Below are positions 48,037-61,927 of a stretch of 64,000 bases of DNA, piece by piece (the stretch's first letter is position 1; each line of letters opens with the position of its first letter). Origin of the DNA: an uncultured Candidatus Peribacteria bacterium. GTDB taxonomy: Bacteria; Patescibacteriota; Gracilibacteria; Absconditabacterales; Absconditicoccaceae. The position numbers and the translations under genes were made by a program. The notes beneath the pieces were generated by a model that worked only from the letters and a program-made list of their open reading frames with translations, ran no database searches and was not told the origin of the DNA. Location: NCBI GenBank assembly GCA_964463255.1, contig CAYXBC010000024.1:5587-69586 (forward strand), written 5' to 3'.

Positions 48037-48049
48037 GTGCCATGTTATT

Positions 48050-48098
48050 CTGGTAGGGTGGCCCCGGAGATGCACCGGGGAACCACTGAGTAAAGAAA
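48050..48098 (-). other. tRNA 3'-half-like remnant (putative att junction)
   Basis: The minus strand reads ctttactCAGTGGTtCCCCGGtgcatctCCGGGGCCACCCTAcca. tRNA-Lys reads cttttaagcCAGTGGTcCAGGGttcgatcCCCTGCCACCCTA. The acceptor strand and variable-loop region are identical, and the T-stem differs but still base-pairs. No 5' half is present. Confidence 0.5.
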
Positions 48099-48356
48099 AA
48101 AATAACCAATCTCTTGATTATTTTTCTATATTTCAACATTTCAATGTTATTCTGGTAGACTGACAGGTCATTGAATCTAATTTCTATACGTCTATCTTTA
48201 CTCAATATAAACAGTTCATCCTAAAAAACAAGGACGTTATAAAAGCCATATATGCGTATATGGACTTTTTCCATAAATGAAGGTTAGCCGAGCTTTCGTC
48301 AGTGGAGTTAGTGAAAGTTGGGGATTACAATCTATAAATAAGGAACAAACCGTTCA

Positions 48357-48482
48357 CTAATCTAATTCAACCTCTAACAATAACTGAATGAGATTATAGA
48401 GAGATTCACCAAAACCTTTAGCACTCAATACTTCACGCAAAGATTGTTTCGTTTCAAATCTTTGTAAAATCAGTTTATCCAT
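48357..48482 (-). CDS. hypothetical 41-aa protein divergent from rep
   Basis: ATG 48482, TAG 48357-48359. It is short and has no motif. Confidence 0.25.
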   Translation of the reverse strand: MDKLILQRFETKQSLREVLSAKGFGESLYNLIQLLLEVELD

Positions 48483-48506
48483 TTTATTTTATTACCATAT
48501 AAAACA

Positions 48507-49427
48507 ATGACTATATCACAAGACATCATCCAAAGGACTATTGATAAGATGATAAGAAGCCAAGAGAAAAAGAAAGAGATTACTGGTTATTTAGAAGCTA
48601 ATAAGCCACATTTATTATGATCTATCCGAAAGAAGGGAAGGATAAAAGACTGTTGTAATGTCTTAATCTTCCGTGATTATCTCAATGGAGAAAAGAAGCT
48701 CTATAAAACCAACTTCTGTAAATACGATAAGTTCTGCCTAGCCTGTGCTACTAGGAGATCAATAAAGATGATCCAAAAATTTGAAGCCTGAATTGTTCAA
48801 TATGGATTGGATACGAAAAACTGGTATCATATATCATTGACGGTTAAGCACAATAATCGTCAGTCTTTAGGATTTCTTATGGATAAACTATGGAAGGCAA
48901 AAGAGAAACTAGCCCAAAGGTTTAGAAACTCCAAAAGAGATAATCATAAAGCAAAGAGTTTTATGCACAATTTTGACGGGATAGTTAGTTCTGTAGAGGT
49001 AACCTATAGTCAAAAAAGCGGGCGACATCCACATATCCATATGCTTGTTTGTACTGATAAAGAAATACCAATAGAATGGTCTAAGAAACTAACAGCACAT
49101 TCAAATAGAGAGCTTCAAAAAGAATGGTATCAGATTACGGGGGATAGTTATTCCGTAGGTATAAGAAAGGTAGCGGTTAATAAAGACAATTATAGCCGTA
49201 AAGGTATAGGGGAGGTATTCAAATATGCAGTTAAATTTTCAAAATTGGATATACCTCAACTGTCGGAAGTGATAGAAATTCAGCAAATCAAAAGATATCG
49301 TTTCTTTGCTACCTATGGTATCTTTAGAGGTTGGAAGATAGAAAAACCCAATATCATAGATAATGATAGGTTCGTAGAAAGATCTTTTGAATATCACAAT
49401 GATGAATTTGAAGAAAAAGACATATAA
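48507..49427 (+). CDS. rolling-circle replication initiator (HUH endonuclease, Rep_1/pC194-pUB110-like)
   Basis: Motif 1 HISLTVKHN, motif 2 HPHIHMLV, motif 3 EVFKYAVKFSK. Two in-frame TGAs join ATG 48507 to ORF 48807..49427. Confidence 0.8.
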
Positions 49428-49562
49428 GTTGATATATTAGATAATTAGACAAAAGATTCGTGATTTTAACTATCAAATACAACAGGTACAAAATTTGCAA
49501 AAATTTCGATTCTGAATATAATTACTAGAGAGTAAAAACTCTTTAATTTTTGAAACACAGGT

Positions 49563-50357
49563 ATGAAAAAAAAGGTTACATCAATTCACGACTTTCTAGA
49601 GCAAGCCAAGGATATGACACCCACCCAGGCGGGAAAAGAATTTTATTGATTGACGGAAAAAGAAATTAATGAAATCCTATCAAAAAAAACCGAAGTTTCA
49701 AAGACAGAAATAGAAACCACAAAATCCACAGAAGAAGAATCGAATGAAATAATGTCTTCTAAACTTCCTTCAGCAGTAAGTAAGCAGGGGAAGGATGCAG
49801 TTGAATATTTTTTTAAGAATAAAGAAGTAAGTCATTCGAATGTTATCGTTGAGGTCCAGAAACTAGGGAAGAAATGACTGATCCAATATAAGGATACAGG
49901 AAACGGAACTTACGAAGTCCATTTTAATCTCCCATGATGTAAACTGAAACGATATATGCCCCCAGATACTAGCATAGCGGATAGTAGTTACATATACGAT
50001 CTTTGGGACGACACCAAGATAACACAGATAACACAACAGGAAACAACAAGAAAGAGACTACGAAGTGATGAATGAAAGAAATATTTGACCGACAAAGAGA
50101 AGAATGAAAAAAAATCACTTATCAGTAAGGAAAACTTCCTAAAGCTGTGAAAGGCATTGTATCCTAATGGAACCGAGGAAGAACAGATATTAGCAATAAT
50201 GATAGCGACATGATTTTATGGATATATGTGGTTATCAGATAAAACATCAGAATATCAGCTTGCTGTCAATTGTTATCTTCATTCAGATGACCGTTCATTC
50301 TTCAAGCTGAGTTTTGATCTCAGCTCATGCAGTATCATTTACACAAGCACTTTATAG
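49563..50357 (+). CDS. DGR target protein 1 (264 aa) with C-terminal variable region
   Basis: ATG 49563 with six in-frame TGAs. Paralogous to 53293..54087 and to the C-terminal third of 50432..53218. It ends ...CSIIYTSTL-TAG at 50355. Confidence 0.8.
50256..50350 (+). repeat. DGR variable repeat VR1
   Basis: Aligns to the reverse complement of 55785-55884. By hand alignment, 17 of 18 substitutions fall at TR adenines. Confidence 0.85.
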
Positions 50358-50431
50358 AGATAGACCCCGCAGAGCGGGGTAAACTCTTTGACTCTTTGTC
50401 CCTTTGACTCTTTAATTATTACACTATACCA

Positions 50432-59733: not shown

Positions 59734-59734
59734 G

Positions 59735-59756
59735 CTCTTCTTGGCGAAGAGATTTT
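59735..59756 (+). terminator. possible terminator hairpin
   Basis: ctcttc-ttggc-gaagag followed by atttt. Confidence 0.4.
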
Positions 59757-59817
59757 AATGGGTGTTTTTCACAAAGTCCTTTTATAGAAAAAGGAAGAGA
59801 AACGAACCCAAAAGCCA

Positions 59818-59985
59818 ATGAAAATTGAAGAACTAAGAAAAGTTCTAGGCTCAAAATATGATGCTTTGCCAGATTCAACTCTGCAAGGTATCATAGACCT
59901 CTTCAGAATGTATGCGAAACTTGCAATAAGTAAGCATATAGCTGAAAAGAAAAAAGCCAGAGCTGACAAAATCCGCAACAAATAG
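59818..59985 (+). CDS. hypothetical 55-aa basic protein upstream of the recombinase (candidate directionality factor or regulator)
   Basis: ATG 59818, TAG 59983, followed by a strong hairpin. Confidence 0.45.
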   Translation: MKIEELRKVLGSKYDALPDSTLQGIIDLFRMYAKLAISKHIAEKKKARADKIRNK

Positions 59986-59993
59986 CGGTAGAG

Positions 59994-60020
59994 CCGTAGC
60001 CCACAAAGCTACGGTTTTCT
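59994..60020 (+). terminator. rho-independent terminator
   Basis: ccgtagc-ccacaaa-gctacgg followed by tttt. Confidence 0.6.
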
Positions 60021-60166
60021 TGTTGTGAAAAAATCTCTTGCTTTTGTGAACTGTTTATTTATTATATATACCGAACCAGTAAGAAAACATATAAAAAGTA
60101 GTTATAATAAGTAATATAAACGCTATAATATAAGTTCGGTATAAATAACATTTTATTTACTAATAA

Positions 60167-61927
60167 ATGCCAATGAAAGATTATTCAAAAAAACGCAAAG
60201 CACCTAAAAACCCTCTTATGGACTTTGATTTATGATTGTCAAAAGTCGTGAAACCCACAACAAAGACTGAACAGCCACAAAAACTAAGGGCTATTATTTA
60301 TGTTAGAGTATCCTGAGACCGCCAAATTAGAGAATGACATTGATTGGAAGGACAAGAAGAATCCTGTAGAAACTGGTGTAAATTGAATGGCAACATTGAA
60401 GTGATTAAGGTATTTGCAGATAAGGCTATTACTGGGGCATTGATTGATCGTCAATGAATAAGAGAAGCTATGGAATATTTGGAAAAAGAGAACAAAAAAT
60501 ATACGAAAATAACTCACTTTGTATGTACAGAAGTATGACGTATAGCAAGACCAGAAGACCGTGAAGAAGGGACGGCTTTGATTGCAAGAATTGAAGCTAC
60601 AGGAGCAAAAATTGTTACAACCTTAGAGCATAGAGATACCTCAACCGATGAAGGGAAACTTATGGATGAGATAAAACTTTCTATAGGGACATATGAAAGA
60701 AAGAAAATTATGAAGAGAGCAAGGAATTGAAGAATATCTAGGGCATTACAAGGATACCGACCCTTTCCAACTTTGCCTGTCGGCTATAAAAAGGAAGGAC
60801 AAGGACAGACGGCAATTGTCGTAAAAGATGATTTTAAGGCAGGAATTATAAAAGAAGGATTGGAGCTTTTTGCCCGTAATGTCCTCATAACAAGGGCAGA
60901 TTTATTGGAATTTTTCAGAGATAAATGACTAACTACCAATGAAAAGAACTACAAGGGGAAGCTTTGGAGTTCCTTTATAGAAAAAACCTTTTTACTACAT
61001 AGACTATTCTTTTATGCGGGATATATCTTCTATCCTGACTGGGACATCAATGAACCTATAGAATGAAGACAACCTGCCATTACTTCTTTGGATGTGATTT
61101 ATAAAATCATTGAAAAACTGCAAAAGGGTAGTCTTTTGAAGAGGAATCCACGCAGAGTTGAAATGTCTGCCGAATTTCCTCTGAGATGAGTGATTTACTG
61201 TCCAGCTTGCCATAGAAAGCTGACTTCCTGGTATTCAAAATCCTGAACAGGCAATAAATTTGCTTATTATGGCTGTAGTTATAAAGACTGTACGGCAAGG
61301 GAAAATATCCCAAAAGAAATGTTAGAAAACGACTTCAGAGACCTATTGAATAAGTATAAGCTTCCAGATGATTTCCTTCCTGCTTTCAAAATTATCCTCA
61401 AAGAGGAGCGGGAAGCTAGTAAACAAAATGAGCATTCACTGAGAGATAAGAAGATGGGAATGAAAGTAAATACTGAGAACAAAATGAAAGACATTTGGGA
61501 TGCTATGATGAAAACCAAGAACGTTGATTTATACGCAAATTTGGAAAAGGAATGGGCAGAATTGAATAGTGAGAAGTTAGTACTGGAAGATGACCTAAGC
61601 AATGATGCCTATACTGAACAAGAGTATATGGAGCTTTACGAAAAGACATTATGAATCATTACAAATCCATTAGCCTTTTGGACTTTGGGGAATGCAGAAA
61701 TAAAACAACTCCTTTTGGCTGTTCGGTTTGGATGAAAATTATACTATAACAAAAAATCAGGTTACCGAACTAACGATACCTGACTTCTCAATTATCTCTT
61801 GGGTATTTTGGGGACTAACAAAACGCATTTGTTAGGGTGGCAGGGGATCGAACCCTGGACCACTGGCTTAAAAGGCCATTGCTCTACCGACTGAGCTACC
61901 ACCCCATACCAACGACAAAACGATTAA
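60167..61927 (+). CDS. large serine recombinase (resolvase domain, recombinase domain, zinc ribbon)
   Basis: AIIYVRVS-G-DRQ catalytic Ser region, the zinc ribbon CPACHRKL...YYGCSYKDC and a coiled-coil segment. Under code 25 the first real stop is TAA 61925, so the ORF runs antisense across tRNA-Lys. The functional C-terminus may be shorter. Confidence 0.8.
61833..61905 (-). tRNA. tRNA-Lys (anticodon UUU)
   Basis: Minus strand GGGGTGGTAGCTCAGTCGGTAGAGCAATGGCCTTTTAAGCCAGTGGTCCAGGGTTCGATCCCCTGCCACCCTA. It folds as a cloverleaf with anticodon loop CTTTTAA and T-loop TTCGATC. CCA is not encoded. Confidence 0.9.

Follow-up and report, generated by a model that had tools for sequence, protein, structure and literature searches.

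The 64,000-nt stretch of contig CAYXBC010000024.1 analysed here (hereafter the window), which derives from an uncultured Candidatus Peribacteria bacterium (Absconditabacterales), carries a single tRNA gene according to ARAGORN, a tRNA-Lys(UUU). Between this gene and a cluster of surface-protein genes lies a region of about 13.7 kb that encodes a Rep_1 replication initiator at one end, a large serine recombinase (LSR) at the other and, between them, a diversity-generating retroelement (DGR) and further cargo genes (Table 1). An initial annotation of the locus had described an integrated element bounded by the tRNA and by a remnant of its 3' half. The accessory content listed there (Rep, DGR, AAA+/vWA and recombinase) was recovered in full by Pfam, as Rep_1, AAA_5, RVT_1, VWA and Resolvase plus Zn_ribbon_recom, and GC content is ~0.33 within the element vs ~0.41 outside. 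The comparative analysis presented below makes it probable that the region is an integrative rolling-circle plasmid of SR1 (Absconditabacteria) bacteria that its LSR integrated at the 3' end of tRNA-Lys, that the LSR gene was split in the process, and that the tRNA-like pseudo-half is an older, host-side copy.

Analysis of the locus requires the appropriate genetic code. Open reading frames (ORFs) called with table 11 are all short in the window, and reading UGA as sense yields long ORFs across its whole length. Furthermore, a scan of reference genomes with the L25 protein encoded next to the tRNA returned 15 Absconditabacteria/SR1-type contigs from metagenome-assembled genomes (MAGs) and one distant Acidobacteriota match. 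Based on these two observations, the host is an SR1 bacterium using code 25 (UGA = sense), and the table-11 ORF list is of no use because the window reads UGA as sense. Public code-11 protein calls for such organisms are fragments stopping at UGA (P0121-P0123). The 298-codon frame that stays open at 61872-62765 (+), on the strand complementary to the tRNA and the L25 gene, is no gene; it is an artefact that arises from a code with only two stops.

Table 1. Coordinates of the element, its attachment sites and adjacent features in the window.
Feature	Position	Strand	Basis or remark
SLH protein	47167-47997		Pfam
Pseudo-3'-half of tRNA-Lys	48042-48098	-	Host-side, outside the element
Displaced tRNA-Lys downstream flank (host DNA)	48099-48155	-	CCAGAATAACAT + terminator-like hairpin + T run
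attR crossover core TAG, true far end	48156-48158	.	L017 and L026 element homology begins here
Detached last 59 codons and stop of LSR gene	48158-48337	+	In frame with 60167-61835 after circularisation; 59 codons = 48158-48334
Rolling-circle replication initiator Rep_1	48507-49427	+	Pfam PF01446, E 2.4e-16
Three paralogous DGR target genes	49563-50357; 50432-53218 (AAA_5 domain); 53293-54087	+
DGR variable regions	50256-50358; 53117-53219; 53986-54088		Close the three target genes
DGR reverse transcriptase	54492-55721	-	RVT_1, E 4.6e-19
DGR template repeat	55781-55884	- (reverse transcriptase strand)
vWA-domain protein	56255-58390	+	VWA, E 1.4e-8
437-aa cargo protein	58423-59733	+	46%-identical homologue in L008/L017 element
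LSR main body, 556 codons up to core	60167-61835	+	Resolvase + Zn_ribbon_recom
attL crossover core, TAG on + (= CTA, tRNA nt 71-73)	61833-61835	.	attL/attR/attB comparison: window, L017, L026, L002/L005/L011
tRNA-Lys(UUU), integration target	G1=61905 to A73=61833	-	ARAGORN + sequence reading
L25	62186-62860	-	Pfam

Occupied and empty tRNA-Lys sites in SR1 relatives

The tRNA-Lys gene of the window is intact and has no encoded CCA; its A73 is followed by ACA, which the element supplies, so that the 3' half reads CAGTGGT-C-CAGGG-TTCGATC-CCCTG-CCACCCTA-ACA. The gene is near-identical in 13 SR1 relatives, whose contigs are referred to here by locus labels (L001 and so on), and the order L25-tRNA-Lys is kept in 14 of 15 SR1 loci. 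Chromosomal genes directly follow tRNA-Lys in five relatives: homologues of window genes 34644-36710 and 28254-34640 in L001 and L013, and a homologue of window 25541-28045 in L002, L005 and L009. These are the empty sites that the initial annotation had suggested looking for in related genomes. An LSR homologue (81-93% identity) lies against the same tRNA-Lys in L003/L027, L017 and L026, L017 being the same contig as L008 and carrying the same element as L018-L020 and L025. Where the contig reaches the far end, that is in the full L017 contig and in L026, a homologous Rep is found there, with different cargo in between. Given empty tRNA-Lys sites in relatives and sister elements with other cargo at the same tRNA, the region is a site-specifically integrated mobile accessory element downstream of the tRNA-Lys 3' end, and the integration proposed at the outset is thereby confirmed. 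The accompanying view that core genes flank the element on both sides needs qualifying: the surface-protein genes on the left are themselves absent from this position in relatives.

Element ends and attachment sites

The two ends of the element were located by comparing occupied and empty sites (a slash marks the junction in the attachment-site sequences that follow). On the tRNA side the junction reads CCACCCTA/ACAAATGCGTTTTGTTAG in the window and L017, with close variants in L026 and L003, and at empty sites CCACCCTA continues as /CCAAAAAG, /CCATAAAA, /ACAAAAGC and others. On the Rep side, homology among the three Lys-type elements (window, L017 and L026) starts at TAGACTGA(C/G)(A/G)GG, window position 48156. 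The three share the boundary TAG/ACTGACAGG and differ outside it: the window has ATGTTATTCTGG, L017 a T run and L026 TTTCATTATGG. Read in the orientation of the tRNA, the outside sequence of L026 is CTA/CCATAATGAAAT...CACATAGAAAGTACCCGAGCAATCAGGTATTTTTTT, which corresponds to the CCA and terminator flank of empty tRNA-Lys sites. Its equivalent in the window, 48099-48155, reads ATAGAAAAATAATCAAGAGATTGGTTATTTTTTT and is homologous to the tRNA-Lys flank at the empty sites L001/L002/L011 as well as to the post-element flank in L026; a simple terminator scan left this segment unflagged because its stem is AT-rich.

The element spans 48156-61835 (~13.68 kb). The initial annotation had used the tRNA-like remnant as its boundary and thereby placed the left end, at 48041, ~115 bp too far out. 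At attL, the P' arm of the element (...CATTTGT) lies to the left of the core and the tRNA to the right, and the TAG of attR constitutes the last three bases of the inner copy of a 15-bp direct repeat, ATGTTATTCTGGTAG. This repeat had been reported correctly: it is exact and occurs just twice, at 48042-48056 and 48144-48158 (0.02 copies expected by chance). It is composed of the core and the first 12 bases of the B' flank, one copy lying at the true attR and the other behind the pseudo-half.

From these junctions we reconstructed attB as CCCCTGCCACC-CTA-CCAGAATAACAT and attP as GACCTGTCAGT-CTA-ACAAATGCG, in which the P arm is identical to the tRNA acceptor strand (B arm) at 9 of 12 positions. 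The attL and attR sites share CTA only, Gly-type elements share GCTCCA and Arg-type elements CTAC, a short core (3-6 bp) as expected for serine integrases; the exchange falls within CTA, presumably at a dinucleotide of these three bases. The junction of a circular form would be expected to read ...GGGACTAACAAAACGCATTTGT-TAG-ACTGACAGGTCATTGAATC..., i.e. ...CATTTGT-TAG-ACTGACAGG..., that of an empty site ...GATCCCCTGCCACCCTA-CCAGAATAACATTGAAATGTTG..., i.e. ...CCACCCTA-CCAGAATAACATTGAAATG..., and a degenerate attP pattern for the element family would be TCAGTCTAACAANNNNNTTTTGTTAG. Two other assignments were rejected. A crossover in the T loop was discarded because the T arms of the tRNA and the remnant both pair perfectly and neither is a hybrid. 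The motif CTCTTGATTA at 48110-48120, an apparent CTTGAT in the inter-repeat segment, was considered as a pC194-type Rep nick site; it is the host terminator hairpin, as shown by the homology of this segment with the terminator flank that follows tRNA-Lys where the site is empty.

A family of large serine recombinases next to tRNA genes

The recombinase of the element matches Pfam Resolvase (PF00239, E 2.9e-21, residues 42-196) and Zn_ribbon_recom (PF13408, E 5.5e-7), and its motif YVRVSGDRQ aligns with YTRVSTSIQ of 3GUV, as befits a resolvase-type catalytic domain. It is the sole recombinase detected in the window by Pfam, which returned no tyrosine recombinase. The closest annotated relatives are serine integrases of Streptococcus, Listeria and Faecalibacterium phages (24-25% identity over residues ~40-495), and the C-terminal 120 residues had no match in Pfam, PDB or the comparison with phage integrases. 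The enzyme is thus predicted to be a large serine recombinase with the corresponding catalysis, not one of the tyrosine type whose signature the tRNA association had initially been taken to represent. No candidate recombination directionality factor was identified.

A metagenome scan with the LSR alignment identified 13 loci, ranging from 91% down to 23% identity; in all 10 of these 13 for which sequence past the LSR gene is available, a convergent tRNA lies next to the gene end. Overall, 18 LSR relatives were found, and the 16 with sequence past the gene all abut a tRNA 3' end, the tRNAs involved being Lys(UUU), Leu(CAA), Gly(UCC) and Arg(CCU). The LSR gene ends ~100 bp from the tRNA 3' end, a distance that reaches ~390 bp in the most distant metagenome locus. 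The tRNA association therefore holds family-wide for these LSRs. tRNA genes are the textbook target of tyrosine integrases. A review states that serine-recombinase elements typically disrupt protein-coding genes and that tyrosine ones use tRNA 3' ends (PMC5704250), and the main text of the survey of thousands of LSRs by Durrant et al. reports protein-coding gene clusters as targets and does not mention tRNA (PMC10083194).

Probable splitting of the recombinase gene at its attachment site

With UGA read as sense, the integrated LSR ORF does not end beside the tRNA, as previously annotated, and instead reads on through the tRNA in antisense to a TAA at 61925-61927, with no TAA or TAG in frame ahead of the junction. 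Conservation of the LSR protein (...VRFGgKLYYNKKSGYRTNDTgLLNYLL...) reaches the core codons TTG TTA GGG in all subtypes, and the stop in the LSR frame lies 7-148 nt inside the tRNA antisense across elements. When the element ends are joined into circles, the LSR ORF extends to 615 (window), 615 (L017), 614 (L026) and 610 aa (Gly-type L031), the window gene thereby regaining 59 codons that lie detached beside Rep. Four lines of evidence indicate that this extension is coding. It is the sole open frame at 48158-48334; among three related sequences, 22 of 52 changed codons are synonymous in this frame vs 10 of 53 and 5 of 52 in the other frames; none of six elements provides it with a start codon; and the extensions of Gly-type elements (L034, L022 and L038) show homology at the protein level (tBLASTn E 4.5e-17 and 1.9e-11), with the core TGGAGC as their exact starting point. 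Neither Pfam nor PDB contains a match for the 59-aa extension.

In a sister subfamily, both circular forms and the splitting of the gene can be observed directly. Contigs L046-L049 come from four samples/assemblers and have terminal overlaps of 119, 87, 55 and 30 nt; all leave a circle of 7,973 bp, their gene orders are circular permutations of one another, and each circle encodes an unsplit 635-aa LSR, then a small ORF, then Rep. In the integrated relative (L043-L045), the contigs run out within a tRNA that is Arg-CCU by its anticodon loop. Here the gene on the tRNA (attL) side of L043 corresponds to residues 1-577 of the circular LSR (73.5% identity), and an ORF at the Rep end of L043 to residues 574-631 (60% identity, E 2e-23). 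The corresponding sites are ...GATAATCTAC/GGCCAATCAG... for attP, ...GACAGTCTAC/TCCTGGCCGG... for attL and ...TATCATCTAC/GGCCAATCAG... for attR. The comparison of L046 with L043 thus shows directly that attP lies within the integrase ORF and that integration splits the gene. Since the sister LSR has no BLASTP similarity to the window LSR, it is the architecture that is shared; the LSR gene of the window element, too, was most likely split by its own integration. To our knowledge, a recombinase gene spanning its own attP has not been described for serine integrases.

The breaks in the L043-L045 contigs are of interest in themselves. The three were assembled independently from the same ~8-kb element, and all stop at both of its att junctions: on one side inside the tRNA, on the other no more than ~130 nt from the far end. 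Breaks of this kind are to be expected where a sample contains the element both integrated and free, or in several contexts.

The following sequence of events is the most probable for the window element. The element, with its Rep_1 initiator at one end, LSR at the other and swappable cargo between, would have existed as a plasmid whose attP lay inside a 615-codon LSR gene. The LSR would have recombined this attP with the attB at the tRNA, with exchange within CTA, leaving the tRNA intact and relocating what had followed it (CCA, flank and terminator) to 48099-48155 at the far end. Integration would leave 556 codons of the LSR gene at the tRNA side, fused to tRNA-antisense codons, and would strand the last 59 codons, devoid of a start codon, beside Rep.

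The conserved extension also bears on the view that the region is a fixed, immobile genomic island, with a recombinase frame that spans the junction merely as a by-product of having two stop codons. Long accidental ORFs are indeed commoner in a UGA-sense genome, and no circular form of the window element was found, both as this view would have it. However, the estimated chance of a 59-codon open frame is ~4% per case and such a frame was seen in every case, and the extension is conserved as a protein across subtypes that have diverged at the DNA level. Furthermore, Rep, LSR and reverse transcriptase are all intact, the DGR variable regions are diversified, near-identical ends flank different cargo and host flanks, and circular relatives exist. 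We therefore consider a fixed island very unlikely.

A more speculative reading is that the two LSR isoforms specified by the two states of the DNA act as a directionality or regulatory switch that dispenses with a separate factor, and that the pseudo-halves described below are functional secondary attB sites or decoys. In such a switch, integration would trade the last 59 residues for tRNA-antisense codons, the full-length LSR would drive attP x attB recombination, and the truncated form would be silent or excision-prone; the pseudo-halves concerned, whether single, triple or in 5.5-unit arrays, would not be debris. We deem this combination rather improbable.

Searches for direct evidence of a free form of the Lys-type elements were negative. 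Scans of viral contigs with the LSR, Rep and the predicted Lys-type attP pattern yielded no match, a search for junction-spanning proteins returned only three code-11 fragments, and the contexts of L052 and L053 revealed no unambiguous circle. In L035 (5030-5300), a stretch of ~35 codons from the end of an L029/L030-type LSR gene continues in frame, across the core TAC/C, into an extension ORF. The latter is the far-end extension of a different, 6.5-kb element integrated at tRNA-Leu(CAA), and the fusion suggests insertion into a site that was already occupied.

Several observations weigh against the proposed reading of the window element. No circular or attP form of it or of its LSR subfamily was recovered, and the sister subfamily in which such forms occur is, as stated, not similar to it in LSR sequence. 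A window-family LSR tail contiguous with the extension is present in L052 and L035, but both could be secondary-integration hybrids. The synonymous excess in the extension frame rests on just the three related sequences, none of the empty sites is from the same species (L25 identity to the closest relatives is 80-86%), and the Pfam Recombinase domain was not detected in the LSR even at E<=1. Finally, the origin of the pseudo-half is only something that we infer.

A pseudo-half of tRNA-Lys outside the element

The remnant interpreted in the initial annotation as the 3' half of a tRNA lies past the displaced tRNA terminator, ~100 bp outside the element end. The minus strand at 48050-48098 has the sequence CAGTGGT-T-CCCCGG-TGCATCT-CCGGGG-CCACCCTA-CCA, that is, variable-loop bases, a GC hairpin replacing the T arm, and the acceptor 3' strand with A and CCA; the outer copy of the 15-bp repeat follows. 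The sequence blocks, the hairpin and the CCA are as originally described. The stem, however, has 6 bp instead of 5, the loop TGCATCT is no T-loop, and Rfam returned neither tRNA nor any other family at this region. The feature is hence real, but no good tRNA half. Formal alignment gave a divided answer: in plain local alignment the remnant is the top match in the window, with a score of 23 that 64 of 200 shuffles reach, and the two-block pattern TAGGGTGGC-N14-22-ACCACTG matches only the tRNA and the remnant in the window and occurs in none of 100 shuffles. The significance of the remnant thus derives from its block structure, its hairpin, the repeat and homologous copies elsewhere, and not from the alignment score.

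Such copies follow a common design: bases of the variable loop or anticodon arm are combined with a GC hairpin, which either takes the place of the T arm or interrupts it, and with the acceptor strand and its flank. Pseudo-halves of the same design as that of the window occur at the unoccupied tRNA-Lys sites of L012 and L011; all three have the stem C(C/T)CCGG/CCGG(G/A)G in common, in which one pair is compensated, and the acceptor strand and flank of each track the resident tRNA. L017 harbours three pseudo-tRNA-Lys halves (6706-7245), in which an 18-bp perfect palindrome, CCACGGAGTACTCCGTGG, is inserted in the T loop. L034 (4224-4770; also L031 45-150) contains 5.5 tandem 99-bp units of 97% identity. 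In each unit the anticodon arm and variable loop of tRNA-Gly(UCC) are combined with an acceptor strand that includes CCA and with a terminator, and the T arm is replaced by the hairpin TCCCGAC-AA-GTCGGGA. One pseudo-half for another tRNA, with CCTCGGAGTACTCCGAGG, was found in L038.

Several further features of these copies were recorded. The L017 pseudo-halves carry the L017-specific T stem (CTGGG/CCCAG), a small GIY-YIG ORF (L017 6844-7092) lies between copies 2 and 3, and the L034 array lies directly outside the attR of a 6.9-kb LSR element without Rep_1. Pseudo-copies of the 5' part of tRNA-Lys occur upstream of the real gene in L010 (11053-11120, with 28 identical bases) and L002 (10985-11050), both with an altered anticodon arm containing CCGCTAAAG; tRNA debris is consequently present on both sides of tRNA-Lys. 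Two explanations of the units were discarded. A generic hairpin similar to repetitive extragenic palindromes is at odds with the finding that GC stems of at least 6 bp occur at only 7 places in the 64 kb, three of them being DGR hairpins, and maintenance of the units in frame, which their lengths in the window (102 bp) and L034 (99 bp) would allow as multiples of 3, fails on the closed frame of L034 and the 86-bp unit of L017.

These comparisons leave little room for the model of the initial annotation, in which a tRNA-targeting integrase made its exchange within the tRNA body, the element extended over 48041-61905, and 48050-48098 was the displaced original 3' half marking attR. The remnant does have tRNA-like blocks, an encoded CCA and the right orientation, and such a layout fits the classical Islander-type picture for tyrosine integrases. 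The integrase is nonetheless a serine recombinase, the homology of the element ends 100 bp inside of the remnant, and the host terminator flank intervenes between the two. In L026, the same element end directly abuts the CCA and ancestral tRNA-Lys terminator flank, with no remnant. The T arm is canonical in every SR1 tRNA-Lys gene compared, and none of them has the CCCCGG/CCGGGG stem. Equivalent pseudo-halves occur at empty tRNA-Lys sites, for which reason the remnant is not a displaced half of this insertion. We regard this model as hardly tenable, and conclude that the remnant is probably host-side and older than the present insertion; as L026 lacks it, it is not needed for the element.

How the pseudo-half arose is less clear, and two models were weighed. 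In the first, part of the attB region (3' part of the tRNA, flank and terminator) was duplicated in tandem on the host side, and the copy is maintained or homogenised with the tRNA and perhaps usable as a secondary or decoy attB, its T arm having been made palindromic by template switching or selection. This is consistent with the agreement of each pseudo-half with its resident tRNA in acceptor strand and flank (window, L012 and L011), with the hairpin C(C/T)CCGG...CCGG(G/A)G and its compensated pair being common across species, with 21 identical bases over the reconstructed attB core, with the tandem array of L034, with the rarity of such GC hairpins in the window, and with the fact that several hairpins are perfect palindromes, centre included (L012, L017, L011 and L038). 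Conversely, no element has been seen integrated at a pseudo-half, a duplication mechanism is not demonstrated, L026 has no pseudo-half, and the L017 copies are of another design, with the palindrome in the T loop. We adopt this model tentatively, as plausible but short of probable.

The second model sees in the pseudo-half the scar of an older element, whose attP arm mimicked the tRNA 3' half with its own terminator and which decayed to ~100 bp, the present element having inserted later at a tRNA end that was still usable. A precedent for such layering is found in L035: the resident element there is joined through the core, at its far end, to a truncated LSR tail of a different type, showing that elements can stack where a site is occupied and decay to att fragments. 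An attR-like junction, CCTGTTAAGTGCTA/CCAAGAAGTC, is also present ~155 bp downstream of the 'empty' tRNA of L002; moreover, the P arms of extant elements mimic the acceptor strand. Nevertheless, what adjoins the inner repeat has its homologue in the ancestral host flank and not in any known P' arm, the 5.5 near-identical 99-bp units of L034 resemble local amplification, and no extant element with such an attP was found. A scar is accordingly possible but doubtful. Under the preferred reading, the pseudo-half would be an older host-side partial copy of the attB region, and such debris or duplicates would recur at the tRNA targets of the element family.

Replication initiator and cargo

The Rep protein contains the HUH-like motif HPHIHML in addition to its Rep_1 domain, as expected of a rolling-circle initiator, and is 28-33% identical to Rep proteins of 2-3 kb plasmids. 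At E<=1e-10 we identified 331 Rep relatives, and the contigs examined were SR1 MAGs or UGA-sense; no record of the Rep protein of the window itself was found. A conserved CTATAAATAAGGAA motif is located upstream of rep. The sequence (C/A)(T/A)A(T/C)AAATAAGGAA(C/T)AAA, at 48329-48353, overlaps the stop of the LSR extension ~150 bp upstream of rep and is present at equivalent positions in L017, L021, L022, L026, L038 and L040, making it a candidate rolling-circle origin/nick region, which presumably resembles the pC194/pUB110 origin. In L017 (7473-7787) and L026 (2620-2845), the LSR extension and Rep are separated by an ORF of ~100 aa with acidic repeats of the PELE/PDFE type; the window element does not have it and carries a different short segment there (48340-48506).

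The DGR is genuine: in all three variable regions, 15-17 of the ~20 mismatches to the template repeat fall at template adenines. The template repeat and reverse transcriptase are on the strand opposite to all three variable regions, each of which is followed after 5-6 nt by a hairpin ACCCCGC-NNN-GCGGGGT (50364, 53225 and 54094). Cargo varies among relatives of the element and includes a P-type ATPase, type I restriction-modification (R-M), PD-(D/E)XK plus methyltransferase, DpnII R-M and Fic.

Beyond the far end of the element, a giant surface-protein cluster (28254-47997) comprises ORFs of 2130, 690 and 3416 aa and the SLH protein; a C-terminal domain is common to the 3416-aa protein, the SLH protein and the protein encoded at 12291-16865. 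The cluster varies in its presence next to tRNA-Lys, being absent in L002/L005/L009 and partial in L001/L013. The possibility that it is an older island bounded by the remnant was rejected, as there is no second tRNA fragment near 28100-28250.

Relationship to known integrative systems

The element combines traits of several known systems. As in Islander-type tRNA islands, insertion is site-specific at a tRNA 3' end with the integrase gene beside the tRNA, the tRNA is kept, different cargo is exchanged at one hotspot and relatives have empty sites. In contrast with such islands, the recombinase is of the serine type, the shared core is 3-6 bp, and the element neither carries nor displaces a functional tRNA segment; its tRNA-like fragment is not an endpoint, lying ~100 bp outside, not being identical and being absent in L026. 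With the large serine integrases of phages and integrative conjugative elements (phiC31, Bxb1, A118, TP901-1, SPbeta SprA, TnpX/TndX) the window LSR shares a resolvase catalytic domain with a zinc-ribbon recombinase domain and a length of ~600 aa, and its att sites are likewise short, with a minimal core. It differs from them in targeting a tRNA end, in its C-terminal 120 residues without match, and in an attP that would lie inside the ORF, so that integration removes the last 59 residues. The Rep_1 rolling-circle plasmids (pC194/pUB110-type) share the Rep_1 domain and are paralleled by the circular 7,973-bp relatives, whereas the window element carries an integrase and lives integrated.

The pSAM2-type actinomycete integrative and conjugative elements are likewise small, integrate at tRNA genes and replicate as rolling-circle plasmids (PMC2440964). 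pSAM2, however, integrates by means of a tyrosine integrase together with Xis, its Rep is of another family and it has a conjugation gene; no transfer gene was recognised in the window element. An attachment site located in a coding sequence, that of the repressor gene, underlies integration-dependent immunity in mycobacteriophages. The archaeal 'suicidal' integrases of the SSV type also have the attachment site in a coding sequence of the element, such that integrated and free forms encode different proteins (PMC7253208). The likeness is functional only, as the window LSR is not a member of that tyrosine-integrase family: the SSV enzyme is inactivated by an N-terminal split, and the serine recombinase would lose only its C-terminal tail. 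Taken together, the element is most likely a variant that combines known kinds, an integrative rolling-circle plasmid and an LSR that targets tRNA 3' ends, with a gene split by integration.

Implications

These results indicate that the end of a tRNA-associated island cannot be set by a tRNA-like fragment alone, and that table-11 gene calling fragments the genes of such elements. They define a set of LSRs in a candidate-phyla-radiation lineage that targets the last bases of four different tRNAs, and this family could give compact, cofactor-light integrases with conserved, predictable landing sites. An LSR gene that lies across its own attP makes the hypothesis of directionality control testable. 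Lastly, elements with Rep and LSR appear to be a main vehicle for R-M/defence genes and DGRs in Absconditabacteria and, as these bacteria are without genetic tools, they are natural vector candidates.

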